From: a virus
Taxonomy: Duplodnaviria; Caudoviricetes
IMG/VR virus record: IMGVR_UViG_3300042327_001345
Span: 1-55,621 of that record
DNA length: 55,621 nt
Direction: 5' to 3' (one strand)
A program made the translations under genes and the position numbers. Every line of letters starts with the position of its first letter. Within the stretch, counting starts at the first letter, position 1. The notes beneath the pieces were generated by a model. The model was given only the letters and a program-made list of their open reading frames with translations, was not told the origin of the DNA and ran no database searches. Below are positions 5,489 through 44,705 of the stretch, in pieces.

Positions 5489-8400
5489 ATGGCCAAAATC
5501 AAACCACTAGCTCGAGCCGCGGATACAAACCCATCAGTCGTCATGTCATTGGCCGACGAGGTGCGTGCAGAGATGGCCGCTGACAAGGCGGCGAAGCTGG
5601 ACAAGAACCAGCTTGAAGCAAAGCGCAAACAGTACGAAGCCAGCAGACCGCCGGTCAAAGCCTCCGAGGCATACGGCCAGCATGAGGGTTCATACATCAA
5701 GCCCATCTTCTACGACCGCATGCAAGTGGATCTGTCCAAGGGCAAGTTTGGTGGCCCCGGATTCTCAGGCATCCAACTGGTTGACCCGGAATATCAAAAG
5801 GCGCGGGCGGTGGCCGGTGTAACCGACCAAAAGATGGCGACACGCCTCATCAACCGCAACAAGGCGCAGGTGCCCAAGGGTGCAAAGGTTATCTGGACAC
5901 CGTCAGTTGGTGGACTCGAGCAACACAAGTCCAACTCCACCATGTTCAGCGAGTTTGCCGACATCTTTGCCAATCAGCGCAAGAACATGTCGCCTGAGGA
6001 GATCCAGAAGCTGAGCGACCGCGCCAGCACCATGACCGACAACAATGGCCGCTTAATCTTTCCCAATGGGATTGACTTAAGTTCGCGCAACTTCCGCAAG
6101 GCTGTCAAAACCTACGACCAACGCGCATTGATGGCCGACATCTTCGCTGGCCGTGGTGTGGGTGGCGAGAAGGGCCGCACGGTTCCGATGGAAGAATTGC
6201 TCCAGAAGAACCTTGACCCCAACATGGCGCAGGCTGGCACGCTCGACTTGGGCAACCGGCTGTTCCGTCTGGACGACAACGTCATAGACCGGCCCGACCT
6301 GCACAGTGATTACCCCAAGATCCTGACGGGCGAAGATCTGGATGTGAACTACCTGCCCACGCCCATTGCCACGGTGTTCGAAGACTTTAAGACGGCCAAG
6401 GAGTTAGAAAAGGGCCGCGACATCACGTTGATGGACTACACCAAAAACGACCCAACCCAATTGCTCACGGAAGATCTGCTGACCAGAATGCAAAAGGCCG
6501 GATACCGTAAGGGTGGGCTGGCCCGCATGAACAAGGGCGGAGCGATGAAGCGACTGTTCGGTATGGGTGACGAATCAGCGCCAGCAATCCGCTCAGGCCA
6601 GACCAGCTTTGATCAGGCCCCGGCCAAGGTGTCGCCACTGTCGATCATGCGCAACGAGCAAACGCCGCTCCCGGTCAATTTCAATGACGAGGAGTTTCGC
6701 AAGCAGGTTGGCCAAGCACTGACCCCATACCCGCCACACTACGAAGCCGCCGCGCTTCGGGCCATTGAAGATCTTGAGGCCGCAAAGATTAAGTTCCCCG
6801 AACAAGCGGCGCACACCCAAGAGCAAATCGATAGGCACGTCAACAACCTGAAGGCCGACCGCGCCGCCCGGCAGTTCGGTGGTAGCCAGTTGTCCAACTA
6901 CATGATCAAGAAAATGGGAACCCCAAGCGATCCCATGCGCAAGTTGGCACAGCAGGGCATCTCGGCAGTTCCGACAGAACTGAAAAAAACCCCCAACGCA
7001 ATTGCAACAAGGGTTGCCGGTAGAAATCCAATGGACGTTGCCAACAAACGGGTAATGACAGCCAACGCCGGACTTCACAGCGCAGGCGTAGAAGGACAGG
7101 TTGCAAAAGAAGCCGGAAAGCCTTTGATACAGGCTCTGAGAGATCCGCAAACAGCCTTGGCCGCAAACATTGAATACGGTCTGGACAGCATGCTTCAGCC
7201 CATTGCTCGCAAAAACGACCTGAGCGCGTCACCAGAGCAGTTGAAATATTTTAAAGAAGATGAAGTGTTTGTCCAGCCTGAGGTGAACCCCCAAGCGTTT
7301 GAAGCGGTTGGATTCACCCGGCTGAGCAAAGAACTGCAAGACGCAATCATCTCCGGCGAGATCCGGCCAGAGCAGGTGTCCAAGATTTCGATGGAAGACT
7401 TGACGCGACGCGTGCACAAAGGCGATGTCAAGCGCGAGCAAGAAGCGCTGGCCGAGAAGAAGCGGTTGGCCGGTGGCCTGTTGACGCATGAGACATATGG
7501 CAACGGGTTCAGTTGGCAAGAGTTCGCCCCCAAGCGCGAGCTACCAGAGGGCTACACGCAAGATGCCTCCGGCGCGTTCATCGACCCCAAAGGTAACAAG
7601 TCTGTAATTCACCCGGGCTACGACAATTTGCAACGGCAACTTGAGGCCGAAGGCGAGATGATGGGCCATTGCGTGGGTGACTACTGCGACAAAGTATGGG
7701 GTGGCGAAACGCGGGTGTTATCACTGCGCGACAAAAATGGCGATCCGCACGTAACCGTCGAAGTCAAACCCAACGGGGATGTCAACCAAATTTACGGCCA
7801 CGGCAACGAAGATGTGATCCCCAAGTACACGGAATATGTGAAGGACTACCTGAACAAAGGTAGCTTTGGGAATGTCGATCTGAGCACCGTCCCCGGCCTC
7901 TATGACACGGAATTCAGGGTGTATGGCGGCGCTCGATACGAGCCACTGCCGGGCCATAAACCCCTTTCGCTTGATAAGCATTCAATCAAGCCAATGATCC
8001 GCGACATACTCAAAGGCAAGGGCTTCAACGTCAACCGGTTTGTGAACGAAAAAGAGCGAGCAGAGGTGCGCAAGGCACTCAGCGAAATAACCGAAGACGA
8101 CTACAACAGGTACATGGACGCAAAGTTTGGGGCAGGCTCCGAACGGTTGCCTTTCCAGACCGCGATGCCGCAAGAGTTCAACAAAGGTGGCCTTGCAAAG
8201 AAATTGCTTGGCGCGGCCAAGGAGCCGAAATCCTACGGCGCAGTCGATGAGATGGTTGCCAAGGTTGGAGCCGAAGGCCGGTCACCAATCGTGCCGGTTC
8301 CCAATCGCTGGTTCCTGTACCCCGACAAGTTCCCCAACCAACAAAAGCTGGTGGAGCGCATTCTGGCCACCACCGGCAAGCGTCGCTTGGATTTCCCCTC

Positions 8401-9706
8401 CGGCGCATTCATTGATCCCCGCACTGGGCAGGTGTTGGATGCCAACATTGTCGAAGACTTGGGCGTGGTCATTGATCCTAAAACCAATCGGCCCATGATG
8501 TCGTCCGGCGCACAGTCGCAGATCGAGGTGCTGGATCCAAAGACCGGCTCGTACACCAAGAGCAATTTGGTGCGTAAGGGCCTGTTCAAGCCCGAGGGCG
8601 GCGATCCATTGCTCAACGACCTGAACTTCATCGCGACCATCGAGAAGGGCGACGTTGGCCACAAGTACGGCCTGTCAACGGAATACGCCTCACCAACGGA
8701 ACTGTTCAACACCCAGACTGGCGCAAACCCCACGCTCCGCCCACGGAGCCGCGGTGACCTGTTCGGCATGGGTGAGGTTGTCGGGCGCGTGAAGATCGGC
8801 AGGAGTGAGCCGCATGATGTGTATGAGAAGCTATTCGTGGCCCCCAAAGGCTCCGATGTGCCCGGCAAGAAGCTGAACAAGGCCAAGGGTGGTCTGGCTA
8901 GGGCGGCGGTCACCAAGGCCCCCAAGCCCCCATCAGTAGTCCAATCGCTGGCTGATGAAGTCCGCGCCGAAATGGCCGCAGAAAAAGAAGCCGGGCAACT
9001 CAGCGCCAAGGCGCGTGCCGATCAAAGTCTCAAAGAAGCTTCAATGGGCATGACGCGCACCGTGCCCAGAGAGCAGGCCGACCTGAACCTCAAAGACTTT
9101 TTGGCTGAGAGCGTTGACAAAAACAGGTACTACCACGGCACGTTCAGGGATCCCGCCTCCGACAGGGGCAAAGGCTTCAAAGAATTCCGTACCGGCCAAG
9201 CCGACTCCTCATTCCTAAGCCCTGACCCCACATTCGCTGGTGGCTACGCTGGTGGCACGTTGATGCCGCTCAAGCCAGAGTTCCAAAAGCATGGCAAGTT
9301 TCAGATGCCCGATCCAGACAGATACCAGATGCCTGAAGGCACTCGTGTGATGCCCGTCTATGCTCAGGTCAAAAAGCCGTTTGATTATGAAAACCGTGAG
9401 CACGTCAAAATGTTGGCCGAGCACCTGCGCCAGCAGGGCGTGCCCGCCAGTCAGATCATGCGTGACATCAAAGTCATCAGCGCCCCAGACGAGGCCAACA
9501 ATTGGATGGCTTTGGAAAAGGGCTACATCGTCAGGGCTTTAAAAGATCTAGGCCATGACGGCATGTACGTCAAAGAGCTTGATACCAAAAACTTGGGCGT
9601 ATTCAACCCCAACGTAATCAAGTCTGCCATTGGCAACAAGGGCACGTACGACACAAGCAAAAAAGACATAACGCAAAAGAAGGGTGGCCTCGTTGGAACA
9701 CTATAA
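5489..9706 (+). CDS. 1405-aa polyvalent (multi-module) protein with PcfJ-like domain (~7510-7860) and C-terminal ART-PolyVal-like ADP-ribosyltransferase (~9128-9673)
   Basis: EGEMMGHCVGDYC...SLRDKNGDPHVTVEV; YYHGT...FLSPDPTFAGGYA...VMPVY...LGHDG...VFNPNVIKSAIGNKGTYD; modules separated by xKGGL motifs. Confidence 0.8.
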   Translation: MAKIKPLARAADTNPSVVMSLADEVRAEMAADKAAKLDKNQLEAKRKQYEASRPPVKASEAYGQHEGSYIKPIFYDRMQVDLSKGKFGGPGFSGIQLVDPEYQKARAVAGVTDQKMATRLINRNKAQVPKGAKVIWTPSVGGLEQHKSNSTMFSEFADIFANQRKNMSPEEIQKLSDRASTMTDNNGRLIFPNGIDLSSRNFRKAVKTYDQRALMADIFAGRGVGGEKGRTVPMEELLQKNLDPNMAQAGTLDLGNRLFRLDDNVIDRPDLHSDYPKILTGEDLDVNYLPTPIATVFEDFKTAKELEKGRDITLMDYTKNDPTQLLTEDLLTRMQKAGYRKGGLARMNKGGAMKRLFGMGDESAPAIRSGQTSFDQAPAKVSPLSIMRNEQTPLPVNFNDEEFRKQVGQALTPYPPHYEAAALRAIEDLEAAKIKFPEQAAHTQEQIDRHVNNLKADRAARQFGGSQLSNYMIKKMGTPSDPMRKLAQQGISAVPTELKKTPNAIATRVAGRNPMDVANKRVMTANAGLHSAGVEGQVAKEAGKPLIQALRDPQTALAANIEYGLDSMLQPIARKNDLSASPEQLKYFKEDEVFVQPEVNPQAFEAVGFTRLSKELQDAIISGEIRPEQVSKISMEDLTRRVHKGDVKREQEALAEKKRLAGGLLTHETYGNGFSWQEFAPKRELPEGYTQDASGAFIDPKGNKSVIHPGYDNLQRQLEAEGEMMGHCVGDYCDKVWGGETRVLSLRDKNGDPHVTVEVKPNGDVNQIYGHGNEDVIPKYTEYVKDYLNKGSFGNVDLSTVPGLYDTEFRVYGGARYEPLPGHKPLSLDKHSIKPMIRDILKGKGFNVNRFVNEKERAEVRKALSEITEDDYNRYMDAKFGAGSERLPFQTAMPQEFNKGGLAKKLLGAAKEPKSYGAVDEMVAKVGAEGRSPIVPVPNRWFLYPDKFPNQQKLVERILATTGKRRLDFPSGAFIDPRTGQVLDANIVEDLGVVIDPKTNRPMMSSGAQSQIEVLDPKTGSYTKSNLVRKGLFKPEGGDPLLNDLNFIATIEKGDVGHKYGLSTEYASPTELFNTQTGANPTLRPRSRGDLFGMGEVVGRVKIGRSEPHDVYEKLFVAPKGSDVPGKKLNKAKGGLARAAVTKAPKPPSVVQSLADEVRAEMAAEKEAGQLSAKARADQSLKEASMGMTRTVPREQADLNLKDFLAESVDKNRYYHGTFRDPASDRGKGFKEFRTGQADSSFLSPDPTFAGGYAGGTLMPLKPEFQKHGKFQMPDPDRYQMPEGTRVMPVYAQVKKPFDYENREHVKMLAEHLRQQGVPASQIMRDIKVISAPDEANNWMALEKGYIVRALKDLGHDGMYVKELDTKNLGVFNPNVIKSAIGNKGTYDTSKKDITQKKGGLVGTL

Positions 9707-11225
9707 ACTTTTAGAAGGCTGGGGCCACGGCGATCTGGTCAAGCACATGAAGGCTGGCGGATCCGCCGATTCATTCGACCCCGAGAAGCCGTCACCCATT
9801 TATGTCCCGGCGCTGGCCGAACTGCGCGAAACGTTTGCTGGCATGAAAAACCCAATCGCTGACGGAACCAATGTTCAGTCCTACGCAGAGGCTGGATTCG
9901 TCGAGCCGTTTGGCGTGGATTCGTCCCCGCCAGAAGACGAAGACTCTGAATTCATGCGACGCATGGCCAAGAAGCTGAGCGAAAAATTTGGCCGGGAGGT
10001 CAAGACGCTGGCCACCAAGCCCCGGGCATTGGCTGATTTCATCGTAGATGACATTGGCGCAAACATGGCCGGTGGCATGGGCGACTACATGAACATGCCG
10101 CTGGAAGCCATTGATTATTTGCGAGAACAAGCCGCAGTCCAGAACAAGCGTGGCTACGTGCCCGAGTCCGTAATGGGCGGCAAGATGGTTCCCCCAAAGG
10201 TCAACAAGCTGGCCATGCCTGAGGATCGCAACTTTTCATCCAAAGGCGCAAAGGCACTGAACAAGAAATACGGCTTGAGTTCCGGTAAGAATGAAACCCC
10301 GATGCTGAGCGACGTGGCATCGTTTGTGGCCGATCCCTTGCTGGTAGCTGGCCCGCTGGGCAAAGCCTCCAAAACAATCATCCAAGAGGGCTTACCCCGG
10401 GCAACCGAGATGGGCATGAACGCCGCCTACCCGGCCATGCGCAGGCCATTCACCCCGGTTGACATCACGGTAGAGGGTGTCGGCCCGGATCTGGGCAAAT
10501 ACAAAAGCCCAGCGTTTCAGGACTACATCACCAAGCAAAGCGTTGGCGAGGGCACGGAAGTCCCAATGACCACGATTGGCGGACGCAAGGCCAAAGAGCG
10601 CAAGGGTCAGGGCGTTTACATGAACGAGGACACCCCGCCGACACTTGAAACCAATCCGATGAAAGCGTTCAGCGTGCGTAGCGGCGACTTGTCCACCGAC
10701 AAGAAGCTACGAGCCGATGTAGCCACCGCTGGCCGCAGTTTGAACCAAGAGGCCATGGCCGCACACCGGTTCTTGCCAATCGCCACGAACAACATAAAGG
10801 ACGCGTCGGCAATGCTGATTGGAAGCAAGTCTGGCAGGCCGTTGACCAAAGAAGAAGTGATTCTGATTGGCCAACAATTGCCCGGCATGATCGTGTCGCA
10901 TAACCCGCGCACAGGCTCGGTGTTTGTTGCTCCGTTTCAATCCAAGGCAAACGCGGTTGACAAAGAACTGCTGGACGCGCAAGCCGCCGCTCGCAACGTT
11001 TTAGGCAAAGATGCCAAGACGCAATTGGGCCGTGCGGACGAGAAAAAAGACCTGATGTATATGCATAGCTCTACTTACGCAGAAGAAGGTGCCCGACCAA
11101 TTGACCCAGCCGCCAAGGCCAAGAGGGACGCTTTGCGGAAGATGGATCGTTCGTTTGTTGACCCTTCAAAATTGCGTCGCGTGCCAAGTAATGCGAAGCC
11201 TTTGCCTGCCAATACAGCCAATTAA
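9684..11225 (+). CDS. Hypothetical 513-aa protein with N-terminal MKAGG tag; putative virion cargo or effector
   Basis: Long ORF overlapping the upstream gene end; lies between terL and portal. Confidence 0.75.
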   Translation: MASLEHYKLLEGWGHGDLVKHMKAGGSADSFDPEKPSPIYVPALAELRETFAGMKNPIADGTNVQSYAEAGFVEPFGVDSSPPEDEDSEFMRRMAKKLSEKFGREVKTLATKPRALADFIVDDIGANMAGGMGDYMNMPLEAIDYLREQAAVQNKRGYVPESVMGGKMVPPKVNKLAMPEDRNFSSKGAKALNKKYGLSSGKNETPMLSDVASFVADPLLVAGPLGKASKTIIQEGLPRATEMGMNAAYPAMRRPFTPVDITVEGVGPDLGKYKSPAFQDYITKQSVGEGTEVPMTTIGGRKAKERKGQGVYMNEDTPPTLETNPMKAFSVRSGDLSTDKKLRADVATAGRSLNQEAMAAHRFLPIATNNIKDASAMLIGSKSGRPLTKEEVILIGQQLPGMIVSHNPRTGSVFVAPFQSKANAVDKELLDAQAAARNVLGKDAKTQLGRADEKKDLMYMHSSTYAEEGARPIDPAAKAKRDALRKMDRSFVDPSKLRRVPSNAKPLPANTAN

Positions 11226-11385: not shown

Positions 11386-11414
11386 AAACAAATTTTAACA
11401 TAAGGTTACACAAA

Positions 11415-13907: not shown

Positions 13908-13909
13908 CC

Positions 13910-14080
13910 ATGAGCACAAACGGAAAAATTGGCGGTACACCACCCGGCCCTACACGACAGCACTATCGTCTGGCCACAGGTCAAAGCGTCAATGAAATGC
14001 AATCACAAACAGCGACCACGGCGAACAAAAAGAGCATGGGCGGATTGGCCGCTCTCAAACAGCCCAAAGGCAAAAAGTAA
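13910..14080 (+). CDS. Small basic protein (56 aa) with KSMGGLAAL tag; not in ORF track
   Basis: AAGGAG RBS; MSTNGKIGGTPPGPTRQHYRLATGQSVNEMQSQTATTANKKSMGGLAALKQPKGKK*. Confidence 0.75.
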   Translation: MSTNGKIGGTPPGPTRQHYRLATGQSVNEMQSQTATTANKKSMGGLAALKQPKGKK

Positions 14081-14082
14081 GT

Positions 14083-14265
14083 ATGCGTCTTGTCAGCGAT
14101 TTAATTAGCGCTATCAAAACTCGCCAGTCGGACTTGAAAGACTCATTAGCCGGGGGTTATGCCCTGAACATTGAGTCTTACAACCGAATGGTTGGTCAAT
14201 ACGCAGGCTTGCAAGAGTCGTTGGATATTCTTGAACGTTTAATGGATGAAGAAAATGATGAGTGA
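14083..14265 (+). CDS. Small helical hypothetical protein adjacent to GroES
   Basis: 60 aa; ESYNRMVGQYAGLQESL; closely coupled to flanking genes. Confidence 0.75.
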   Translation: MRLVSDLISAIKTRQSDLKDSLAGGYALNIESYNRMVGQYAGLQESLDILERLMDEENDE

Positions 14266-14692
14266 TAGCACGGTAGCGGGTTATGCCGCTGATGTAGAGG
14301 AGGCTTTTCCTCTTGTAGACCCCGGAGCAAGACCACTTGGCGCACGAGTTTTAGTACAACTGCGTCGGACAAAAAAGACAGTCACTGCAAGCGGGATTGT
14401 GTTGGTTGAAGAAACACGGGAAACCGAAAAATGGCAAAACATGGTTGGCAAAGTTCTTATGTTGGGCCCTCTGGCCTTTCGTAAGCGCGACTCCATGGAG
14501 CCGTGGGTGGAAGGTGTGTGGGTAAAAGAAGGCGACTTCGTGCGCGTGCCCAAGTGGGGCGGCGACCGCTGGGAGGTTCCTATGCCCAACGCTGAACACG
14601 ATGATGACCCCGTCCTTTTTATGGTTCTCAACGACCATGAATTGATCGCCACCGTCACTGGCAACCCACTTGCAATGAAGGCATTCATATGA
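14258..14692 (+). CDS. groES: GroES/Cpn10-like co-chaperonin
   Basis: RPLGARVLV...TASGIVL...GKVLMLGP...VKEGDFV..PKWGG...VLNDHELIATV. Confidence 0.88.
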   Translation: MSDSTVAGYAADVEEAFPLVDPGARPLGARVLVQLRRTKKTVTASGIVLVEETRETEKWQNMVGKVLMLGPLAFRKRDSMEPWVEGVWVKEGDFVRVPKWGGDRWEVPMPNAEHDDDPVLFMVLNDHELIATVTGNPLAMKAFI

Positions 14693-15675
14693 GCACAGAA
14701 CAAAATACCCAAGAGGTTATGTACATTCAGGAGGCCGCGGATGGTGGTGCAGTCGTTGACTTGCCGCCAAGCATTCCAAGCCCAGAAGCCCAGCAAAACG
14801 AATCGGTTGATCCAGTAGAAACCGATGACGATGATGCGGCGGCGGAAGCCGCTGAGATACAAGCCAATGGATTCGTAGATCCAGAAGCACAAGCCATTCG
14901 CGAAGCTAAACGCGCAAAACGTCGCTCACGCAAGGACTACCATCGCTCAGTACAGGCAGAAAAAGATGCCAAGCTGGCCATGCTGGAACAGCAAAACCGA
15001 CAGTTGTTGGAGCGCGTACAGGTTGTCGAGCGCAAAGCCTTAGGGCAAGACTTGGCACGACTGGACAAGCGCATCAGCGACGAACAGAACAGCATCATTT
15101 ACGCAAAACAAAAAATTAAAGAAGCCGCTGATACCGGCAACGGCGATTTGATGGTGAGCGCTCAAGAACTGCTGTTAGAAGCCTCGCGTAACTATGAAAG
15201 TTTAGTTAATCAAAAACGCAGGTTCACAACTCCGCCGCCACAAAAAGAAGAAGCGCCAGACCCCATGGTCACGCGTCATTCACAACGGTGGATTTCAAAA
15301 AACACTTGGTACAACCCCCGGGGCCAAGACCGCGATTCCAAAATCGCCTTGGCCGAAGATCAACAGCTTGTCAGCGAAGGGTACGACCCGTCGTCACAAG
15401 ATTATTGGTTTGAGCTTGACAAACGCTTGCAAAAAGTCTTGCCCCATAGGTATACTGATGACATGGACGAAAATCCAGTGAGGACTCAAAGGCCAAGAAA
15501 TTTTCAAACAGGATCAGGCCGCGAACATGCATCGTCTTCAGATGGTCGAAACACCATCACGCTATCACCCGAAAAGGTGAGAGCAATGAAAGATGCAGGT
15601 ATGTGGGACGATCCCGTCAAACGAGCAAAGATGATTAAACGATACGCGCTCGAAGCAAAAAATTTAAATACCTAA
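14689..15675 (+). CDS. Putative capsid scaffolding protein
   Basis: Acidic N-terminus, long coiled coil, C-terminal LSPEKVRAMKDAGM; upstream of capsid genes. Confidence 0.65.
   Translation: MSTEQNTQEVMYIQEAADGGAVVDLPPSIPSPEAQQNESVDPVETDDDDAAAEAAEIQANGFVDPEAQAIREAKRAKRRSRKDYHRSVQAEKDAKLAMLEQQNRQLLERVQVVERKALGQDLARLDKRISDEQNSIIYAKQKIKEAADTGNGDLMVSAQELLLEASRNYESLVNQKRRFTTPPPQKEEAPDPMVTRHSQRWISKNTWYNPRGQDRDSKIALAEDQQLVSEGYDPSSQDYWFELDKRLQKVLPHRYTDDMDENPVRTQRPRNFQTGSGREHASSSDGRNTITLSPEKVRAMKDAGMWDDPVKRAKMIKRYALEAKNLNT
15427..15456 (+). promoter_or_regulatory. Candidate sigma70 promoter inside scaffold gene, facing capsid genes
   Basis: TTGCAA-18 nt-TATACT. Confidence 0.4.
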
Positions 15676-15687
15676 GGAGTTCAAAAA

Positions 15688-16864: not shown

Positions 16865-17779
16865 ATGGCCGCTCCAATGCGCAGTACGGACTTTAGAAGC
16901 ATCGTTGAACCAATTCTCAACGAGTGCTTCGATGGAGTCTATGACCAACGTACCGATGAATGGTCACGAGTTTTTCGTGAGTCTGAAGGTATTCCTCGTA
17001 ACTATCATGAAGAGCCTGTCCTTTATGGATTTGGTGCCGCTCCTCAGTTGCCTGACGGTTCACCCGTTAGCTACCAACAAGGCGGCGTGCTGTTCCTGAA
17101 GCGCTATGTGTACAACGTTTATGGCTTGGCCTTTGCGTTGACCAAAGTGCTTGTGGAAGACGGCGACCACATCCGTATCGGCAATGTTTACGCTCGACAC
17201 TTGGCCCAATCTTTGATTGAAACCAAAGAAACCTTGTCGGCTAACATTTTGAACCGCGCCTTCAATGCCTCCTACCCCGGCGGTGATGGTGTTCAACTTA
17301 ACTCCAACGCGCACCCAATCGTTAGCGGCACCGCTAGCAATTTGTTGTCCACCGCGGCGAACTTGTCTCAAACATCTCTCGAACAGATGCTGATTCAAAT
17401 CCGTCAAGCTGTTGACAACAACGGTAAGCGTATTCGTTTGGTTCCCAAGCAATTGGTGGTTGCCCCCGGCAACATTTTCCAAGCGGAAGTTTTGTTGAAA
17501 TCTGTCCTGCGTAGCGGTACAGCAAACAACGACATCAACCCTGTTAAAGCCATTGGTCTGCTTGACCAAGGTGCCGCAGTGTTGTCTCGTTTGACTTCGC
17601 CCAACGCATGGTGGGTTCAGACTGACGCGCCCGAAGGCATGAAGCTTTTGATGCGCCGTAAGCTGGAGAAAACCATGGAAGGCGACTTCGAAACTGACTC
17701 TATGCGCTACAAAGCGACTGAGCGTTACGACGTTGGCTTCACCGACTGGCGTGCCATGTACGGCACACCGGGCGTTTAA
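16865..17779 (+). CDS. Major capsid protein (HK97 fold)
   Basis: AGGAGG RBS; 304 aa; GDGVQL...[29 protein letters not shown]; followed by terminator. Confidence 0.85.
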
Positions 17780-18842: not shown

Positions 18843-18854
18843 TAGGGGAATGTC

Positions 18855-19757
18855 ATGGGTCAATTTAAACCAATGGTGAAAATGGAAACCACTGAGCCAT
18901 CAGTGATTCTGAAGCTGAAAAAGGGTGGCCACGTCAATTACAAAGACGGCGGTCAAGCCGAAAGCGGTCACACAAAAATGGCAGGCGGCGGCAAGATGAG
19001 AGGCGCTTTGCAAATGAGCGCTGAGCCTGCTTTCAAGGGTAAACCAGTTGTGAATGCATCTGTCAAAAATCCTTTGACCAAATTGACCAAGGCCCTAAAG
19101 CCAGTAGTCAAAGCCGCCACAGGTGTTACAACACGCACCGTCGATCCAATCGCCCGAAAAGAGCAAGACCAAGCTCGGTTGAAAGCATTGGATGATAGTG
19201 CGGTTAGGCTCAAAGCGGCTCAGCCAATGCGAAGAGCCAAGGGCGGTAAGGCTGACATGGCGCAAGATAAGGCCATCGTCCAAAAGGCTATGAAGCAACA
19301 CGACACGCAACAGCATGCAGACAAAACAAAGCTGAAGCTCAAGCATGGCGGCAAAATGGCAACTGGCGGTGTGGCAATGAGCAATGCAGGCGGTTACAAA
19401 ACTGGCGGTGTTGTGAACAACAAACCCGGCGGTTACAAGACTGGTGGCGTAGCTATGGCCAACGCTGGCGGTTACGCCAAAGGCGGCATGGTTGATACCG
19501 GTAAGGCTGAAAAAATGCCCCAAGGTATGAAAAAGCCATCACCTCCTGCTACCGGCCAAATCAACTTCTCTGGCGCTTATGCAAACGGCGGTAGAGCAAC
19601 TATGGCCAAACCGATGGCGAAACCGATGGCAAAGTCCTCTGCACCTATGGCTGTAAATCATTCTTCACGCGCTTTGCGTGATGAGGTTTACAAGCCTCAG
19701 GCAAAGCAGATGCGCACGCGAGTCTATAAAAAAGGCGGCAACACAGAAATGTGTTAA
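18855..19757 (+). CDS. Basic low-complexity protein with 11 xxxGG motifs
   Basis: LKKGG, YKDGG, MAGGG, RAKGG, LKHGG, MATGG, YKTGG x2, YAKGG, YANGG, YKKGG. Confidence 0.8.
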   Translation: MGQFKPMVKMETTEPSVILKLKKGGHVNYKDGGQAESGHTKMAGGGKMRGALQMSAEPAFKGKPVVNASVKNPLTKLTKALKPVVKAATGVTTRTVDPIARKEQDQARLKALDDSAVRLKAAQPMRRAKGGKADMAQDKAIVQKAMKQHDTQQHADKTKLKLKHGGKMATGGVAMSNAGGYKTGGVVNNKPGGYKTGGVAMANAGGYAKGGMVDTGKAEKMPQGMKKPSPPATGQINFSGAYANGGRATMAKPMAKPMAKSSAPMAVNHSSRALRDEVYKPQAKQMRTRVYKKGGNTEMC

Positions 19758-22465: not shown

Positions 22466-22645
22466 ATGAAAAAAAAGGGACTTTATGAAAATATTCATGC
22501 AAAACGTGAGCGGATTTCTGAAGGCTCTGGCGAAAAAATGCGCCGAGTGGGTAGCAAAGGTGCGCCAACGGCTGATGCCTTCAAGCAGTCAGCCAAAACA
22601 GCCAGAATGAAATCAGGCGGCAAGATGACCAAGTCCTGTTGGTAA
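22466..22645 (+). CDS. Small basic protein with MKSGG tag
   Basis: GGAG RBS; MKKKGLYENIHAKRERI...RMKSGGKMTKSCW. Confidence 0.75.
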   Translation: MKKKGLYENIHAKRERISEGSGEKMRRVGSKGAPTADAFKQSAKTARMKSGGKMTKSCW

Positions 22646-22648: not shown

Positions 22649-22900
22649 ATGGCAAAAAATCCATCCTTATCAGTTGGCCGCGGAGAAAAACTTCCGCAGT
22701 CAAAAGGCGCTGGATTAACGGCCAAAGGTCGCGCCAAATACAACCGCGAGACTGGGTCAAACTTAAAGGCTCCACAGCCACAGGGCGGCTCACGCAAAGA
22801 TTCATTCTGCGCTCGGATGAGCGGTGTTGTAGAGCATTCAAAGGGTGACGCTCCCCGCGCAAAGGCTTCGCTAAAGCGCTGGGATTGTCCGGGATGGTGA
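22649..22900 (+). CDS. Small basic protein, DUF6321-like
   Basis: GLTAKGRAKYN..TGSNLKAP...RKDSFCARMSG...SLKRWDC pattern. Confidence 0.7.
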   Translation: MAKNPSLSVGRGEKLPQSKGAGLTAKGRAKYNRETGSNLKAPQPQGGSRKDSFCARMSGVVEHSKGDAPRAKASLKRWDCPGW

Positions 22901-37714: not shown

Positions 37715-38127
37715 AACAAGAAACAACACAAAACATTATCAAGCGCTCGAAATCTACCAAGCTTTTGGCAGAAGAGTGGGAACACGTCTACATTGACATC
37801 TACAGAAAACTCAACGAAACAAAAGAGTGGCGATCACTTCGTGCAAACAACACAATTTTCATCTTCAAAAAGGTGGACAAAATTGCCGCAGGTTACGTCT
37901 TCACTGTAGACCCGCCTTTGTTGCAGGGCAAGAATTTTGTTGAGTTTGCAAAATCTTTAGGCAAGGCTGGCTTCGAGCATTTTTCAACTTACGTCAACAA
38001 CCCGATTCCGTTGAAATTTGTGCAAGACGCTGGCTACGAGGTAGAGATTGGAGAAATCATCGGCGACGACGAATTTGCTGAGGTTGCAATAAGCACGACC
38101 CCGGCCCAAGGAGAGCCTCGTGAGTAA
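37711..38127 (+). CDS. Hypothetical protein preceding ejection genes
   Basis: ATGA overlap; 138 aa. Confidence 0.65.
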   Translation: MKQETTQNIIKRSKSTKLLAEEWEHVYIDIYRKLNETKEWRSLRANNTIFIFKKVDKIAAGYVFTVDPPLLQGKNFVEFAKSLGKAGFEHFSTYVNNPIPLKFVQDAGYEVEIGEIIGDDEFAEVAISTTPAQGEPRE

Positions 38128-40747
38128 GTTTTTCAGAGCCCTTGGGCAAACAATCCAAAACCCCGGTCGTATTTTTTCAAATCCAATTGGCGTTTTGCGT
38201 GACGTTGGCGGCGGTCTCATCAAAGATATTTTTGGGGTTGCAAAAGACGTTGGATCATTTACTGGCAACGTTGCTAAAAAAATTGTTGTAGGCACTGGGA
38301 AGGCAATCAAGGCCACCGCCACAACTGTTTACAACACGGCAAAGGCAATCCTAAAAAATCCTTTGCCCACAATTTTGACCATCGGCCTAAGCGCTGTTGG
38401 GGTTCCGTATCCGATTGCAAGTGCGGCTGTATCTGTGTTGAATGGCGGCGACTGGAAAGAGGCCGCAATTAATTTGGCCATGTCGTACGTTGGAGCGCCA
38501 GCCACAAACAAAGAGCTATACAAGCAAGTTTTGATTAGCGCATCAGTTCCTGCTGGCATGGTGGCTCTTAAAGGTGGCACAGCAAAACAAATTCAAGATG
38601 CCGCTATTGCTGGCGCGGTGACAGGATACGTGACAGGCACGCTCACCAAATCAGTAGCCAACGGCGGTTATGGCTTCAAGCCGGGCGAATTAGATACAAA
38701 GATGATTCAGAACGCTACCACCGCGGCTACGCGAGCAATTCTGAATGGCAAAGACATTGGCGAAGCGGTTGTTAATTCAGCCGCTGTAACAGCTTCTGCG
38801 CATTACGTAGCTTCGTTTGCAAACAACCTGACAAAAAATTCTGAGACTTTGCAAGCAACACAAAAATTTATCGACGAGTCAAAAGCAAAGCTTCAAGATG
38901 TGCTCGGCATCACAAGAGAAAAAGAAAAAGCTGTAAACGACAAGGCGAACAAAGCAAAACAATCGGGCGAGGAATATAACAAGTCGGTTGAAACGGCAAA
39001 CAGGATAGCTAAAGGAACCACGGACACGACCGGCATGAGTGATCGGGAATTGAATTTGGTGAACAATATCATGACCACCAATCCCGACAAAGCTCGCGAA
39101 AAATATGAAAACGACAAGTTGGAATATTTGAAAGAATACAACGACTACAGCAAGTTTGTGAATGAGACGTACAACCCGGCAAAAGAAGATTACGAGTCTC
39201 ACGTTCTGGAATACAACCAACAACTGAAAAACCAAGACGTTTTTGCCGACGCTTACGCAACCCACGTTGACCTGTACGAAAAGGCTGTCAAAGATTCGTT
39301 CGATGAATTTCAAGACGCTATATTGAAGCAGGCCGAGTTGGACTTGGCCAAGCAAGCGCCCACGGAAGCGGAGCGTTTACGCAGGGACAAGGAAGCCTTT
39401 GATGCGCAATTGCCTAAAGCGCCGCCTACAACTGCGCCTTCCGGCGAACCCGCTGTTAACAACACCAGTTCGAGCTACAACCAAACAAGCTCAAGCTCAA
39501 CACCGCCAGATCCGTCAAACCCCATTCCAGACACTGGGTCGTCGTCTTATACCGGGCCAATCACAAATCCGGATTTTGGCCAGAACGTCATGCCCAAGGT
39601 TGACACTTCGCCAAAAGCCCCGCCCCCGCCAAAACAAACGGACGTTGGCAAATACTTGACCGATACGGCCACAAAATCCACGGTAAAAGCGGTGAGCGAA
39701 GAATTGAACCCGCCGCCACCGCGGCCAGACATGCCCCCGCCACCTCCTCGGCCAGATATGCCTCCGCCGCCTCCACGGCCTACGCCTCCCCCTGCGCCGC
39801 CCAAGCCACCTGCGCCACCTAAGAGTCCGCTTGATCCGGACAACATTCCTGACCAGCCTAAACCACCGGCAATCAAACCGCCGCCACCACCACCGCCAGA
39901 AATCAAGCCGCCGCCACCCCCGCCGACTCCGCCAAGACAGCCGGGTGACGCAATCAATCTGATGGATCCCAAGTCAAAATTGACTTCCGAAGAGGTGATG
40001 ATTAAGCCGCCTCCCGCGCCACCTACGCCGCCCCGCAAACCGGGCGACGCGCTTAACATTTCCGATCCAAAGGCCAAACTCACCTCGGAAGAGGTGATGA
40101 TTAAGCCTCCGCCACCACCGCCACCACCACCACGTAAACCGGGTGATGCTTTTAATGTGCGGGATCCAAATGCGAAATTGACTTCGGAAGAAGTCATGAT
40201 CAAGCCCCCTCCGCCACCGCCACCCCCGCCTCGCAAGACGGGTGAGGCAATTAATTTGGCCGATCCAAACGCCAAGCTGACGGCGGAAGAGATCATGATC
40301 AAACCGATTGCACCGCCGCCTCCGCCTAATTTGACAAGCAAGGTTGTTGATCCAATCAAAGATCCATACAACATTCCTGCTGAAATCAAAGCGCCGCCAC
40401 CAGCACCCAAACAGCCGGGTGATGTGGGCTATTCACCGCCTGTTGCGCCGCCTCCAACGTCTGTTCTGGATGCCAACTTGACCAGCACCACAACAGCCCC
40501 GCCAACAGTGGCTGAGCAACAAAAAACTTTTGCCGATGCGCAAAAAGTTGTGGCCAAATACACGCCGCCGAAGCCAACAACAAACGTGATGGGCGTGAGG
40601 ACACCGCCGCCTCCACCGCCTCCACTGACTTCAGCACAAAGAACCCAGTTGACTTTGGCGCAAAACGCCCGCAAGGTAGATTCCCGTGGGAACCCTATCA
40701 AACCTATGGGCTTCGATGCAACAGGCAACCCAATTTACGCGACATAA
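38120..40747 (+). CDS. Putative ejection or internal virion protein: hydrophobic Ala/Gly N-terminus, coiled coil, polyproline repeats
   Basis: AAGGAG RBS, GTG start; position between tail genes and SLT gene. Confidence 0.7.
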   Translation: MSKFFRALGQTIQNPGRIFSNPIGVLRDVGGGLIKDIFGVAKDVGSFTGNVAKKIVVGTGKAIKATATTVYNTAKAILKNPLPTILTIGLSAVGVPYPIASAAVSVLNGGDWKEAAINLAMSYVGAPATNKELYKQVLISASVPAGMVALKGGTAKQIQDAAIAGAVTGYVTGTLTKSVANGGYGFKPGELDTKMIQNATTAATRAILNGKDIGEAVVNSAAVTASAHYVASFANNLTKNSETLQATQKFIDESKAKLQDVLGITREKEKAVNDKANKAKQSGEEYNKSVETANRIAKGTTDTTGMSDRELNLVNNIMTTNPDKAREKYENDKLEYLKEYNDYSKFVNETYNPAKEDYESHVLEYNQQLKNQDVFADAYATHVDLYEKAVKDSFDEFQDAILKQAELDLAKQAPTEAERLRRDKEAFDAQLPKAPPTTAPSGEPAVNNTSSSYNQTSSSSTPPDPSNPIPDTGSSSYTGPITNPDFGQNVMPKVDTSPKAPPPPKQTDVGKYLTDTATKSTVKAVSEELNPPPPRPDMPPPPPRPDMPPPPPRPTPPPAPPKPPAPPKSPLDPDNIPDQPKPPAIKPPPPPPPEIKPPPPPPTPPRQPGDAINLMDPKSKLTSEEVMIKPPPAPPTPPRKPGDALNISDPKAKLTSEEVMIKPPPPPPPPPRKPGDAFNVRDPNAKLTSEEVMIKPPPPPPPPPRKTGEAINLADPNAKLTAEEIMIKPIAPPPPPNLTSKVVDPIKDPYNIPAEIKAPPPAPKQPGDVGYSPPVAPPPTSVLDANLTSTTTAPPTVAEQQKTFADAQKVVAKYTPPKPTTNVMGVRTPPPPPPPLTSAQRTQLTLAQNARKVDSRGNPIKPMGFDATGNPIYAT
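39902..40306 (+). repeat. Four 99-bp (33-aa) tandem repeats IKP(n)RKPGDAxNxxDPxAKLTSEEVM
   Basis: Units start 39902, 40001, 40100, 40199; partial fifth at 40298. Confidence 0.92.
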
Positions 40748-40756
40748 GGGGCAAAA

Positions 40757-43738
40757 ATGGCCAACCCAAAACTTACAAAAAAACGAAGCACGCTCTATTT
40801 GCAAAAGAAGCCAGCAAAAACTACGGCTTTGCAAGATTTTTTGCCAACGCAAAACACGGGCACTTCTTCGCTGACTTCGGTGGTTGGCACTGACACATCC
40901 AGCGGAAACATGGTTGGCCCAAGCGGCGGCTCATCGACAAGCACGACATCCGGCAAATCAGACAGCACAGTTAGCGACCTGATCAAGGCAGGCTTGGTGA
41001 CTGCTGGTGGGGCGTATTTGGTTGATAAGGTGCTGGACGAAATCAACAAGCCCACAACACCAACCACCCCTACCACCCCAACGGCTCCAAAGACTCCGAC
41101 GACTCCGCCTACTTCTATCGTAATACCGCCCAAAACGCCCGTGACGGATCCCGACAGCCCTGATTTCGTGGGGCCAAAAATTCCCGTCAACAACGAGTCA
41201 TCAGGCTACTACAAGCCGCCTGTCACAGATCCGGACGATCCAGCTTTTATGGGGCCAAAAGTACCTGTAAACAATGAATCTTCTGGTTATTACAAGCCGC
41301 CAGTAATTCCTGTAAATAACGAGTCGTCCGGTTACTACAAGCCACCGGTCACCAATCCAGACGACCCTGACTTCATGGGGCCTTCATTGCCTGTGAATAA
41401 TGAAAGCTCTGATTATTCAGCGCCCCCGGTCAACAACGAAAGCTCCGGCTATTACACGCCGCCAAACAATGAGTCTTCAGGCTATTACACCCCGCCTGTA
41501 AGCCCCCTGTCACCGACAGAGCCGCCGGTCAATAACGAGACTTCGAGCTATACCCAACCGCCCGTGAGTCCATTAACACCAACTGAGCCGCCGCCTAACA
41601 ACGAAAGCTCAAGCTACTACACAAGCCCAGCGCCGGTGACTACGCCAGTTGCGCCGCCAACGACTACGCCATCTTCGCCGCTGTCGCCGGTAAATTTGAC
41701 ACCCACTCCAACACCCACGCCAGAAGTGCCTGTGAACAACGAGAGTTCGGGCTACTACACGCCTCCGGCAAGCCCGCTGTCGCCCACACCAGAGACACCC
41801 GTTAACAACGAGTCTTCCAGCTACACGCCGACACCCGCACCAACGCCCGCACCATCTCCCGTCGATGATGCGATGGCGGCAAAGGCCGCGCTGTACGGCA
41901 TGAGCCTTGATGAATACAAGTCATACGTGGACTATTACGGCGAAGAATATTTGGATAACTATTACGCTGGTGTATACGATGAAACGCCGGTCAACAATGA
42001 GTCGTCCAGCTACACGGATCCATCCACAACGCCGCCAAAAACCGTAGCCGAAGAATATGGCATGACGGAAGAAGAATACGCGGCCTACGAAGAAGAGTAC
42101 TACAGACAATATTACGAAGACTATTACAAAAATTACTACGACACCACGCCTGTAAACAATGACTCATCCGATTACACAAATTACGAACCGCCAGTCAACA
42201 ACGAAAGTTCTGGCTACACACAAGAGCAGGCCGACTACGATGCGCAGGTTGCCGAGTACAACCGCTATTTGGAAGAGCAAGCCGCCTATGAAAAATACTT
42301 AGACGAGCAAGCCGCTTACGACCAGTACCTTAAAGAGCAAGCTGAATACGATCAGTACTTGGCTGACCAAGCCGCGTACCAACAGTATTTGGAAGACCAA
42401 GCCGCTTATCAAGAGTATTTAGACCAACAGGCCGCGTACGACCAATACTTGGCTGACTTGGCCGAATACACAAACTCGTCCGGTTACTACAATAACAACT
42501 ACGACGCGAACAATGACACGTCAAGTTACACCGATTCTTATGTGAACAACAGCAGTTCAGGTTATTACAAAAAAGGCGGGAGCATCAAGATGAAAAACGG
42601 TGGTTTACCAAGATTTGAAGAAGGCGGCACTACCGACTACGACAGAAATTATTACAACGAATCTTCCAGCTACTACGTGCCTGATGATGCGTACAACACA
42701 ACTTCCAGCTACTACACCGAGCCGGACGTGAACAACACATCGTCAGGTTACTACGACAGCACGCCAGTCAATAACGATCAATCAAGCTACTACACCGATT
42801 CGGATGTAAACAACACCTCATCTGGTTATTACGACAACACACCCGTGAACAATGACACGTCGGGCTATTACAACAATGAACCTGTGAACAATACCAGTTC
42901 CAATTACAACCAACAAAGTCCGGCGTACACCGCTCCGAATCCAGCGAATCCAATACCGATCAACGCCCCCACAAGCGCACCAGCCACGCCAAAATCTGGC
43001 GATAACTTATTCAGCAATTTCACATCAACAGACGCATTGAAAACCGGGCTTGGCTTAACCGCGCTTTATCAGCTTATCAAGGCGTATGAAGGCAAAGACG
43101 ACATAAAAAACAACGCAACTATGCCCGCGTTTCAATCACCCGCAAGCCGAACCACTCCTTTTGGCATGGGTGCGGCTAGATCTGTGGCTACGGGCAATAT
43201 CCCTTACCAGTTCCCGGGCGCAATGGACAAGCAAAACCTGTATTCAAATCTGGGCGTGCCGGGCTATGAGCAGGACTACGAAGATCCCGTAGAGCCAATG
43301 GAGGGTATGGCCGCAGGCGGTATGGCATCCAATCCGGACGACATGCCGTATTTCACCTACGGCAAGCCAACAGACCCCATGTCGATCATGGGCATGACCG
43401 CCCCGGTCAACAAAATGGCCAAAGGCGGCCTGCCTCGCGCTGAGCAAAAGCTTCCCCCAATGGTCGAAGGCCGGTATGATTACAGGCAGAGCCGGGCCGT
43501 TGTTGGTGAGGGCGATGGCCAAAGCGACGATATCCCAGCCATGCTGGCCGACGGCGAGTATGTTTTTGATGCCGATGTCGTTGCCGCCTTGGGTAACGGA
43601 TCCAACAAAGCTGGTGCAGAAATTTTGGACGAGTTTCGCGAAAAAATACGCGCTCACAAAAGGTCAGCGCCTATTGATGAAATTCCACCAAAAGCCAAAT
43701 CGCCTTTGGCATACATGAAGGAGGTGTCTCGTGGCTGA
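40757..43738 (+). CDS. Putative ejection protein with about 23 VNNESSGYY-type repeats, Tyr decad repeat, five xxxGG tags and C-terminal SDDIPAMLADGEYV domain
   Basis: Direct translation; position in ejection cluster. Confidence 0.75.
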   Translation: MANPKLTKKRSTLYLQKKPAKTTALQDFLPTQNTGTSSLTSVVGTDTSSGNMVGPSGGSSTSTTSGKSDSTVSDLIKAGLVTAGGAYLVDKVLDEINKPTTPTTPTTPTAPKTPTTPPTSIVIPPKTPVTDPDSPDFVGPKIPVNNESSGYYKPPVTDPDDPAFMGPKVPVNNESSGYYKPPVIPVNNESSGYYKPPVTNPDDPDFMGPSLPVNNESSDYSAPPVNNESSGYYTPPNNESSGYYTPPVSPLSPTEPPVNNETSSYTQPPVSPLTPTEPPPNNESSSYYTSPAPVTTPVAPPTTTPSSPLSPVNLTPTPTPTPEVPVNNESSGYYTPPASPLSPTPETPVNNESSSYTPTPAPTPAPSPVDDAMAAKAALYGMSLDEYKSYVDYYGEEYLDNYYAGVYDETPVNNESSSYTDPSTTPPKTVAEEYGMTEEEYAAYEEEYYRQYYEDYYKNYYDTTPVNNDSSDYTNYEPPVNNESSGYTQEQADYDAQVAEYNRYLEEQAAYEKYLDEQAAYDQYLKEQAEYDQYLADQAAYQQYLEDQAAYQEYLDQQAAYDQYLADLAEYTNSSGYYNNNYDANNDTSSYTDSYVNNSSSGYYKKGGSIKMKNGGLPRFEEGGTTDYDRNYYNESSSYYVPDDAYNTTSSYYTEPDVNNTSSGYYDSTPVNNDQSSYYTDSDVNNTSSGYYDNTPVNNDTSGYYNNEPVNNTSSNYNQQSPAYTAPNPANPIPINAPTSAPATPKSGDNLFSNFTSTDALKTGLGLTALYQLIKAYEGKDDIKNNATMPAFQSPASRTTPFGMGAARSVATGNIPYQFPGAMDKQNLYSNLGVPGYEQDYEDPVEPMEGMAAGGMASNPDDMPYFTYGKPTDPMSIMGMTAPVNKMAKGGLPRAEQKLPPMVEGRYDYRQSRAVVGEGDGQSDDIPAMLADGEYVFDADVVAALGNGSNKAGAEILDEFREKIRAHKRSAPIDEIPPKAKSPLAYMKEVSRG
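42257..42469 (+). repeat. About seven 30-bp (10-aa) repeats YxxYLxxQAA
   Basis: YNRYLEEQAA YEKYLDEQAA YDQYLKEQAE YDQYLADQAA YQQYLEDQAA YQEYLDQQAA YDQYLADLAE. Confidence 0.9.
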
Positions 43739-44705
43739 TTTATTCCAAGGTCAACCGTTACCAAGCCTGAAAACTCAGGAGCAAAAGCAAACCATTGCTC
43801 CTCAGTACCTGACGGACTACCAACAAGACATCATTAATTTGGGCAAAAACGCTGTGCAACAAGGCGGCGTTGCCGGTCTGTCACCGCTTACCCAGCAAGC
43901 CCTGAACATGGCTCCGCAAATGACGCAGGCGGGTGCTGGATCAACCGGAACCGCGCAAGATCTGTTGACGCAAAGCGGTTACACGGGCGCAAATCAAATC
44001 GTTCAGAACTACATGAACCCGTACACCAAAAACGTGGTTGATGAAATGTCTCGCTTGAGCCAGCGTGACGTGCGCGATAACGTAATGCCTATGTTTGACA
44101 CGGCCTCGATCGGGTCTGGCAACTTTGGCGGGTCAAGAGCGGGCATGATGAAAGGCCAAACACTGGCCGACATTCAGTCTGATCTGCTGGGTAAGCAATT
44201 CGGAGCGCTCAACACCGGCTACAACCAAGCCATGGGCTATGCGCAAGGCGACCTAAGTCGTGGAGTGCAGGCTGGTCAAGCGCTGAATCAAACAGCGCAA
44301 GTACAAAACCAAATTGGCTCCGGCGCGTTGAAGCAAATGGCGGATCTTGGCTCAATCGAGCAAAAGCAACAGCAAAATCAACTTGACTATCCAATGGCAC
44401 AGGCCAAGGATTTTGCAACGCTGATGCAGGGTCAGAATGTACCAACAGGATCTTCGCAAACAACAATTGCCCCGGGCGAAGCAAACAAATACGGATTGAG
44501 TCCTTTGGAGCAAATGGTTTCTTTGGCCGCGCTTTACAAATCGTTTACCGATCCAAATGCAAGCGTGCCTTTCATCTCGGACAAACTGCCAGCGAAAGCT
44601 CAAGGCGGTAGCGTTTTCCAAGATCAACAGATGATCCCTGAGGGGGCTGTTTTCTATGACGAAGATGGCAATTTTTATGACACTGAAGGCAACGTCTTGG
44701 GGTAA
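43731..44705 (+). CDS. Putative DNA-ejection (pilot) protein
   Basis: GGAGG RBS; Gln/Gly-rich, YMNPYT..VVD, GNFGGSR motifs; KAQGG tag near C-terminus. Confidence 0.7.
   Translation: MADLFQGQPLPSLKTQEQKQTIAPQYLTDYQQDIINLGKNAVQQGGVAGLSPLTQQALNMAPQMTQAGAGSTGTAQDLLTQSGYTGANQIVQNYMNPYTKNVVDEMSRLSQRDVRDNVMPMFDTASIGSGNFGGSRAGMMKGQTLADIQSDLLGKQFGALNTGYNQAMGYAQGDLSRGVQAGQALNQTAQVQNQIGSGALKQMADLGSIEQKQQQNQLDYPMAQAKDFATLMQGQNVPTGSSQTTIAPGEANKYGLSPLEQMVSLAALYKSFTDPNASVPFISDKLPAKAQGGSVFQDQQMIPEGAVFYDEDGNFYDTEGNVLG

Follow-up and report, generated by a model that had tools for sequence, protein, structure and literature searches.

The 55,621 bases of IMG/VR record IMGVR_UViG_3300042327_001345 (hereafter the window) are the whole virus record and represent a complete podovirus-like phage genome of 55.6 kb. 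A short peptide motif with two glycines, [M/Y/F/L]-[K/A]-x-G-G-x-[V/A], recurs in its proteins and is conserved at the protein level across a large clade of uncultured podoviruses. In the window and in its relatives, this motif (hereafter the GG tag) follows the variable cargo and ejection proteins and not those of the shell, motor, tail fibre or replication, as had been claimed in the original prediction, which was made from the window alone. We tentatively propose that it is a multivalent docking tag, for sorting or tethering, of internal and ejected proteins, which would be bound by a putative reader.

The GG tag in the window

The original prediction listed copies of the tag in seven proteins, and all of its coordinates for them were correct when checked by translation and arithmetic. 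Its regular expression, [MYFLKRQ][KANRES].GG (the loose pattern), was compared with shuffled controls over 61 open reading frames (ORFs) of the window. The 33 observed matches exceed the 13.0 expected from shuffles of whole proteins and the 13.4 expected from shuffles within blocks of either 40 or 20 aa, the latter of which preserve local composition; for each type of shuffle, 0/500 reached 33 matches. The enrichment that had been predicted is therefore real, and it is confined to the listed proteins. Six of them (the seventh, of 59 aa, is outside the 61-ORF list and hence outside the shuffle tests) hold 24 matches versus 3.8 expected, and still 13 versus 3.06 when the 300-aa repeat protein is set aside (0/2000 shuffles in both cases). 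The remaining 55 proteins hold 9 matches versus 9.1 expected, a number reached by 280 of 500 shuffles.

Taken alone, the 300-aa (11 versus 0.75 expected), 993-aa (5 versus 0.37) and 1405-aa (5 versus 1.5; 16/1000 shuffles) proteins are significant, and the single copies of the 513-aa (397/1000 shuffles), 56-aa (146/1000) and 324-aa (372/1000) proteins are not. The codons beneath the motif vary (GGC, GGT, GGA and GGG; AAA and AAG; all GCN), which indicates selection for the peptide rather than for a DNA word. An explanation at the DNA level was thus ruled out by codon diversity.

Distribution across relatives

A portal search gave 72 IMG/VR loci, with portal identities of 57–94%, and five whole relatives were also read; a megablast comparison with phages yielded a single distant record. 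The tight pattern [MYFL][KA].GG was used for these sequences. Family counts refer to + strand ORFs under a crude longest-ORF rule and include near-identical relatives; as the loci are mutually related, these counts are non-independent events. The counts of spacing, C-terminal placement and composite elements use distinct sequences.

An unbiased logo of 2562 GG contexts presented M/Y/F enriched at position −3, K/A at −2 and V at +2. The consensus of 606 tight copies from distinct proteins was [M 0.38, Y 0.26, L 0.20, F 0.16]-[K 0.55, A 0.45]-[K/D/E/T]-G-G-x-[V 0.45], and both acidic and basic residues occur at the x position within a single genome.

The tight motif is most abundant in the multi-copy protein family (330 observed versus 9.6 expected; 34 homologues), followed by the polyvalent family (153 versus 14.6), unassigned and mostly small ORFs (131 versus 15.9), the DUF6321 family (20 versus 2.0) and the scaffold-like family (16 versus 0.3; 50 homologues). 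On the other hand, it is absent from the portal (5.2 expected), the capsid protein (2.0), the GroES-like protein (0.9) and the 181-aa, 194-aa and adaptor families (about 1–2 expected each), and the large terminase presents 2 copies versus 2.0 expected. The same classes are tagged in the five whole relatives, including homologues of the 993-aa and 324-aa ejection proteins.

At least one copy occurs in 68 of the 72 loci. Two of the four copy-free loci are fragments that span tag-free genes only, L066 has no recognised head genes on the + strand, and L063 is a real exception. Neither of two cultured relatives has the tag expansion: Roseobacter phage CRP-901 has 0 matches in 45 coding sequences. 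Caulobacter phage RW, whose portal and capsid protein are 47% and 77% identical to those of the window, has 2 matches in 33 coding sequences; it lacks the polyvalent and multi-copy genes, and possesses homologues of the 181-aa, 194-aa, GroES-like and scaffold-like proteins.

Placement of the tag within proteins

A GG is found among the last 30 residues of 51/64 distinct cargo proteins, which are those with genes from terminase to portal, compared with 47/475 other ORFs (at least 150 aa); shuffles of the cargo proteins gave 12.1 expected, with a maximum of 21 in 200. Within 30 aa of the N-terminus there are 61 of the 606 tight copies, and most copies are internal or C-terminal. In the polyvalent proteins, the motif lies at most 10 aa from homology breakpoints in 18% of 742 clusters, versus 7% for random positions. 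The breakpoint and C-terminal counts bear out the preference for module boundaries and protein ends that had been suggested for the tag.

The spacing of successive copies peaks at 8–9 and 12–13 aa. In several relatives the GG is followed by a short amphipathic stretch, such as GG-x(3-10)-DDMRxELLRN at the extreme end of the protein. This composite of terminal GG and amphipathic helix is present in 11/64 cargo proteins versus 0.06 expected from shuffles; a second 'helix' regular expression was discarded as too loose, and the terminal composite count alone was used.

Tagged cargo, multi-copy and small proteins

All the genes located in this section are on the + strand. The 1405-aa polyvalent cargo protein (5489..9706) is encoded between the terminase and portal genes and carries five GG tags and two SLADEVRAEMAA helix elements. 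It combines several effector-type domains that are unrelated to one another, among them families defined by Iyer et al. 2017: Pfam PcfJ at aa 717–781 (42.1 bits, cut-off 25) and ART-PolyVal at aa 1214–1386 (37.7 bits, cut-off 31.2). The tandem tags YRKGG (aa 339, 6503–6517) and MNKGG (aa 347, 6527–6541), together at 6503..6541, close the first module with a spacing of 8 aa, beside a cluster of homology breakpoints at aa 346. They are followed by FNKGG (aa 897, 8177..8191), which precedes LAKKLLG, and by KAKGG (aa 1131, 8879–8893), which opens the segment 8879..8980 and continues as LARAA...PSVVQSLADEVRAEMAA, with the helix at 8945–8980. The last tag, QKKGG (aa 1396, 9674..9688), ends five residues before the stop.

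The KAKGG-LARAAVT...PSVVQSLADEVRAEMAA cassette (aa 1131–1164) repeats the N-terminus of the same protein, MAKIKP-LARAADT..PSVVMSLADEVRAEMAA (helix at 5546–5581). The ART module therefore looks like a fused tagged unit, which suggests that it was formerly separate. The 12-residue helix-like SLADEVRAEMAA element, present twice in this protein (5546–5581 and 8945–8980), is similar to the DDMRxELL-type ends that cargo proteins have in relatives (in L039, L051 and L064 such an element is N-terminal), and may be a second signal. The domain scan of 37 cargo proteins of the clade found ART-PolyVal in 13, PcfJ in 9, and GH108, DUF7178 and DUF6973 in one each. The next gene encodes a 513-aa protein of no known family (9684..11225), without Pfam or PHROG match, whose N-terminal tag MKAGG (aa 22, 9747–9761) is kept in L001.

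The 300-aa multi-tag protein (18855..19757) carries 11 tags, which start at 18915, 18939, 18978, 19233, 19338, 19356, 19395, 19434, 19473, 19578 and 19725. It ends in YKKGGNTEMC and is predicted to be disordered (Atlas model pLDDT 0.43); an Atlas search raised a single lead, DUF6496 at 0.76, which is below threshold. The members of this multi-copy family are encoded after the capsid genes and have 5–17 tags each. Homologues of this family number 4713; the 120 listed have no Pfam domain and are either unnamed or called 'hypothetical'. All the 32/32 distinct multi-copy proteins have a tag at the C-terminal end, typically KKRGGxxC. Most multi-tag proteins present a Cys among the last three residues (...KKGGNTEMC in the window) and an invariant-looking N-terminus, MGQFKPMVKM.TTEP.

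Tags are also found in small proteins. The 56-aa post-portal protein (13910..14080) carries KSMGG at aa 41 (14030–14044), followed by LAALKQPKGKK, and the small post-portal proteins of G003 and G005 have 3–4 tags each. The 59-aa mini-protein (22466..22645), of the GLYENIHAKR... type, has a C-terminal MKSGG (22607–22621). It is followed by an 83-aa DUF6321 protein (22649..22900; Pfam 62.9 bits, gathering cut-off 28.5), whose N-terminus is MAKN-PSLSVGR in the window and MAKGG-PSLAVGR in relatives, so that the tag was lost here. These adjacent DUF6321 and 'GLYENIHAKR' mini-proteins precede the adaptor gene, and in relatives a GG tag often precedes them or is fused to them. The scaffold-like 328-aa protein (14689..15675) has an acidic N-terminus, a middle predicted to be helical and a basic C-terminus; it contains a degenerate AADGGAV (14734–14754) where some relatives have a full tag.

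Ejection proteins and the GEYV module

The 993-aa ejection protein (40757..43738, + strand) carries five tags: YKKGG (aa 604, 42566), MKNGG (aa 612, 42590), FEEGG (aa 620, 42614, a weak copy), MAAGG (aa 851, 43307) and MAKGG (aa 887, 43415). The doublet YKKGGSI.MK.GGLPRF is kept in P0122 and P0125–P0127. The 324-aa ejection protein (43731..44705, + strand), which matches PHROG 4287 'DNA ejection protein', has the tag KAQGG at aa 289 (44595–44609), and the tag occupies the same alignment position in 6/6 homologues of this family.

The last ~80 residues of the 993-aa protein form a C-terminal GEYV module, VVGEGDGQSDDIPAMLADGEYVFDADVVAALGNGSNKAG...KIPPKAKSPLAYMK (43499..43735, + strand), in which the segment G-x-G-x-(S/T)-D-(D/S)-I-P-A-x-L-x-x-G-E-(Y/F/H)-V was found with invariant columns. 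The module occurs in 8212 representative clusters (E ≤ 0.001); in each of the 150 listed it lies at the C-terminus. The motif is present within 150 aa upstream of the module in 114 of 126 usable representatives (196 copies versus 10.0 shuffled), with a density of 1.04 per 100 aa in this region versus 0.12 in the remainder of the proteins, and it ends 10–45 aa before the module in 97/126. With tblastn, the module of the window was matched to tape-measure proteins in 14 records of Arthrobacter siphophages (62.5% identity over 32 aa, E about 9e-4). In gp19 of Arthrobacter phage Richie the module is flanked by KKAGGG and FATGG (949–953), and lambda gpH, inspected by eye, reads FATGG (733–737)-...-GIVHRGEFVF-...-YATGG (778–782). 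The statement in the original prediction that [FY]AxGG occurs in the C-termini of siphophage tape-measure proteins thus holds for both phages. Phage RW keeps one copy, MARGG, just ahead of its GEYV module. From these sequences, the motif appears to be older than the clade, as a long-standing companion of this element of tape-measure and ejection proteins, and its spread to cargo and hub proteins appears to be special to this podovirus clade.

Two repeat structures were also observed in the ejection proteins. The 993-aa protein has ~15 'PVNNESSGYY'-type units and a 30-nt × 6 'LEEQAAYEQY' array, and the 875-aa protein (38120–40747) has a 99-nt × 4 proline-rich repeat (KPPPPPPPPPRKPGDA.N..DP.AKLTSEEVMI).

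Search for a protease or a reader

Window ORFs were scanned against Pfam (39) and PHROGs (30), which gives 48 distinct ORFs. No protease family was found in them besides the cell-wall endolysin, and among the 48 there was no match to an adenain-type cysteine protease; the PHROG 'protease' matches of the capsid protein cover just the capsid part of fusion profiles. The absence of a detectable prohead protease, already noticed in the original prediction, was thus borne out within these ORFs. In addition, no peptidase family, including MPTase, was found in the 37 cargo proteins of the clade at E ≤ 0.001.

The ORF at 15688, formerly suggested as a protease or reader, did not sustain either role. 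Searched with a profile of 30 homologues, PDB yielded no sequence at E ≤ 10. A Pfam scan gave no match at E ≤ 5, and the AF2 model (pLDDT 70.1) had a best Foldseek match in PDB of E 0.16, with none ≤ 0.001. It was also rejected as a specific candidate by its homologue in RW, a tag-poor phage without the tag expansion. Its 194-aa neighbour has no PDB or Pfam match.

The GEYV module is a reasonable lead as candidate reader, because the motif accompanies it in 114/126 representatives. The region (aa 840–993) is poorly folded as a monomer in AF2 (30 rows, pLDDT 51.1), and phmmer against PDB gave one chance-level match (E 0.38). The capsid protein (34-row alignment) and residues 160–215 of the multi-tag protein were modelled as a complex, with no controls, which gave a score of 0.00 and a mark of 0.32, values without weight for or against binding. 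As regards covariation with candidate readers, the motif features vary continuously, and the x position is mixed within genomes.

Proposed role and alternatives

A docking tag would recruit otherwise unrelated proteins into the procapsid interior, and/or would hold proteins on the ejection apparatus so that they exit with the DNA. Its origin would be the older motif found with the C-terminal GEYV module in ejection and tape-measure proteins; in this clade, cargo proteins and a hub protein of 5–17 copies would have acquired it as well. Candidate readers are the GEYV module, the inner face of the capsid protein and the portal. This role fits best because of the restriction to proteins of the presumed head interior, the terminal or junctional placement, the multivalency and the existence of a hub protein. 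Of the two halves of the original interpretation, the sorting tag is thus favoured by distribution and placement, and the cleavage site is not, as no sign of cutting was found. A wider and more doubtful proposal is that all the capsid contents are organised by a peptide-docking system, with the motif as its ligand. A putative hub, together with the single tags carried by cargo, scaffold-like and ejection proteins, would share one receptor, which would be the GEYV module of the ejection protein or else the inside of the capsid protein shell. The disordered hub would act as CsoS2 does in carboxysomes, and the effectors would be strung to the ejection machinery and be loaded and delivered as a chain. 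If true, the same binding would also account for the conserved [F/Y]AxGG-GE(F/Y)V stretch in tape-measure proteins and, perhaps, for the site of lambda gpH processing.

Several observations weigh against a docking tag. The location of the tagged proteins inside the virion is one that we infer from gene position, domain content and homology. In L063 (4407–9301), whose portal is 67% identical over the part present, the cargo-slot ORFs of 420 and 1209 aa are untagged; they have no similarity to the cargo protein of the window. The conserved head proteins of RW exist without the tag expansion, therefore none of them suffices to explain the tag. The original description of the copies as lying in basic, disordered linkers suits the 300-aa protein and finds no backing in the flanks of the polyvalent family, where a crude test of 140 motif and 860 random positions found hydropathy and disorder-promoting residues alike. 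In addition, two comparable proteins are processed: according to a record note, P22 gp7 loses 20 N-terminal residues by the host OpdA (its sequence at this point is ...SYPE/KGGKGG), and lambda gpH is cut in a glycine-rich region by an unknown catalyst (PMC12617516).

These two cases also favour a maturation cleavage site, at which a host or unrecognised phage protease would free effector modules from the polyvalent proteins and split the multi-copy protein into small internal peptides. While the T5 tail is assembled, pb2 is likewise cut (bioRxiv 10.1101/2022.09.20.507954). Tags at module junctions agree with such a site, and the GG with amphipathic helix at the cargo C-termini could be a cut site with a removable targeting peptide. 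Cleavage may likewise join a targeting function, as the targeting sequence of T4 is removed by the prohead protease, and docking could coexist with it. On the other hand, no protease family was detected in the scanned ORFs of the window or in the 37 cargo proteins, and the ORF at 15688 is not protease-like. Many copies are 2–7 residues from the C-terminus or 8–13 aa apart in arrays, where cutting gains little, and there is sequence information on both sides of the GG (hydrophobic at −3, V at +2). If the cut were after GG, the hydrophobic residue would be at P5, versus P4 in the adenovirus consensus. The tandem spacing and near-terminal copies therefore fit a docking motif better than a cut site, and we consider cleavage rather unlikely. 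Similarly unlikely, and slightly more so, is a tag with no dedicated reader, in which a GG turn or hinge with hydrophobic flanks would be a structural or biophysical element of disordered internal proteins. It would aid extension, self-association into a core or condensate, or refolding after the tail channel, and would recur since such segments duplicate easily. The predicted disorder of the multi-copy protein (pLDDT 0.43), the regular array periods of 8–13 aa, the GEYV region that, with its tags, lacks a confident monomer fold (pLDDT 51.1) and the tolerance of acidic and basic residues at x within one genome agree with this explanation; aromatic residues flanked by G resemble self-associating low-complexity segments. 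It is opposed by the conserved position of single copies in non-repetitive proteins (6/6 in the 324-aa family), the strict class restriction (portal 0 versus 5.2 expected) and the near-universal C-terminal placement in unrelated cargo, which indicate a recognised signal and not a generic linker chemistry. Chance, or a compositional artefact of low-complexity sequence rich in K, A and G, is very improbable. The loose pattern does give 13 expected matches proteome-wide, the 9 outside the listed proteins are at chance level, and three listed single copies are not significant alone, but block shuffles still gave 0/500, the excess is 10- to 30-fold in several families over 72 loci, and the positional conservation in the 324-aa family, the varied codons and the C-terminal placement contradict it.

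Comparison with known systems

In T4, the capsid targeting sequence (CTS) is found once, as an N-terminal peptide that the prohead protease gp21 removes. The CTS of IPI-III is the closest functional analogy to the GG tag, since the T4 internal proteins are diverse and share only this targeting sequence (PMC3012670); in both cases a short peptide is common to diverse, fast-evolving proteins which are packed in the head and ejected, or presumed to be so. The motif studied here differs in being mostly C-terminal or internal, often in multiple copies, and present also on ejection and scaffold-like proteins. Of the features of the T4 type, a peptide common to unrelated, presumed-internal proteins was found, and a single N-terminal position and a detectable prohead protease were not.

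The closest structural analogies would be the cargo peptides of encapsulins and microcompartments, and CsoS2. Those peptides are short, terminal and G-rich, with spaced hydrophobic residues or amphipathic helices, and dock cargo inside a shell, which in encapsulins has the HK97 fold. The carboxysome protein CsoS2 is disordered, with many repeats of a short shell-binding motif, and the multi-copy protein described here seems to resemble it. A C-terminal peptide of the encapsulin kind is found in the cargo proteins (51/64). Unlike these systems, the tag has another consensus, belongs to an infectious phage and also marks ejection proteins.

Among phages, the C-termini of lambda gpH and Richie gp19 are alike in that [F/Y]A[T/S]GG motifs flank a GxGxSD(D/S)IPAxLxxGE(Y/F/H)V-type module, but these proteins sit in the tail tube and not in the head, and the spread to cargo and hub proteins is found in the podovirus clade only. 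P22 gp7 likewise belongs to the ejection proteins of a short-tailed phage, has KGG in its N-terminus (YPEKGGKGG) and is processed there by host oligopeptidase A; unlike the tag, it has a single N-terminal site, which is cut before KGG and not after GG. P22 gp20 and gp16 have no comparable motif set.

The adenovirus protease has the consensus (M/I/L)XGG, and ASFV pS273R also cuts GG-type sites. The likeness lies in a GG preceded by a hydrophobic residue in internal virion proteins. The parallel that the original prediction drew with (M/I/L)XGG/X does not stand: in the logos the hydrophobic position is off by one, at −3 from the first G (Phi-x-x-G-G) and not −2, the tag occurs in tandem arrays and terminal copies, and no gene for a clan CE or other protease was found in the scanned ORFs.

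Polyvalent proteins have been proposed to be delivered with the DNA and possibly processed by proteolysis (Iyer et al. 2017, PMC5512222), which supports effector packaging in general. The 1405-aa protein agrees with that description, since it has ART-PolyVal and PcfJ domains and adjoins the packaging genes. It departs from that proposal in that the zincin-like MPTase, a frequent and non-obligatory processing peptidase, is absent from the 37 cargo proteins scanned. In the available text of that paper the words 'linker' and 'glycine' are absent. The tag system appears to be undescribed in print, as full-text searches for motif strings, which were not exhaustive and did not cover supplements, gave no relevant result.

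How short-tailed phages select the proteins that are packed in the head and injected, including anti-defence ADP-ribosyltransferases, is largely unknown outside T4. If the docking role is true, a portable 7-residue tag common to cargo, core and ejection proteins would be a sequence rule to predict injected effectors in metagenomic phages and could serve to bring foreign proteins into capsids. It would also give a clue as to what tape-measure and ejection proteins do with their conserved C-terminal region, for whose processing in lambda no catalyst is known.

Gene order and other features

The Pfam and PHROG scan located an Sf6-type small terminase (3483–4082) and the large terminase (4066–5484), followed, after the cargo slot, by the portal (11415–13907, PHROG 1216), with two mini-proteins next downstream; these and the head genes below are on the + strand. 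A GroES-like co-chaperonin (14246–14692, Pfam Cpn10) lies in the head module between the portal and the scaffold-like gene. It presents a mobile loop KTVTASGIVL and has 52 ORFs across the related loci, and is also found in phages RW and CRP-901. A mimicry of the GroES mobile loop by the tag was rejected by eye, as the TASGIVL loop is canonical and the tag has no hydrophobic triplet.

The conserved 181-aa and 194-aa proteins are encoded downstream of the scaffold-like gene and upstream of the gene for the HK97-type capsid protein (16865–17779, PHROG), and the gene for an Ig-like protein is next. The capsid protein is conserved far above its neighbours, with a mean column identity of 93% over 34 sequences whose portals are 57–94% identical. 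This conservation is compatible with many binding partners but proves nothing.

After the 300-aa repeat protein, the + strand encodes the adaptor, fibre and lysis genes, and then the ejection module, with proteins of 875, 993, 324, 590 and 601 aa, the last of which has an SLT domain. The accessory and early genes (570–1430, 51100–52181 and 52623–53060) encode DUF932, two DUF1376 and a RusA resolvase, all of them tag-free. The 250-aa ORF (27397–28149) and the 772-aa ORF (28011–30329) overlap by 139 nt as listed, and the 772-aa tail protein probably starts further downstream than this.

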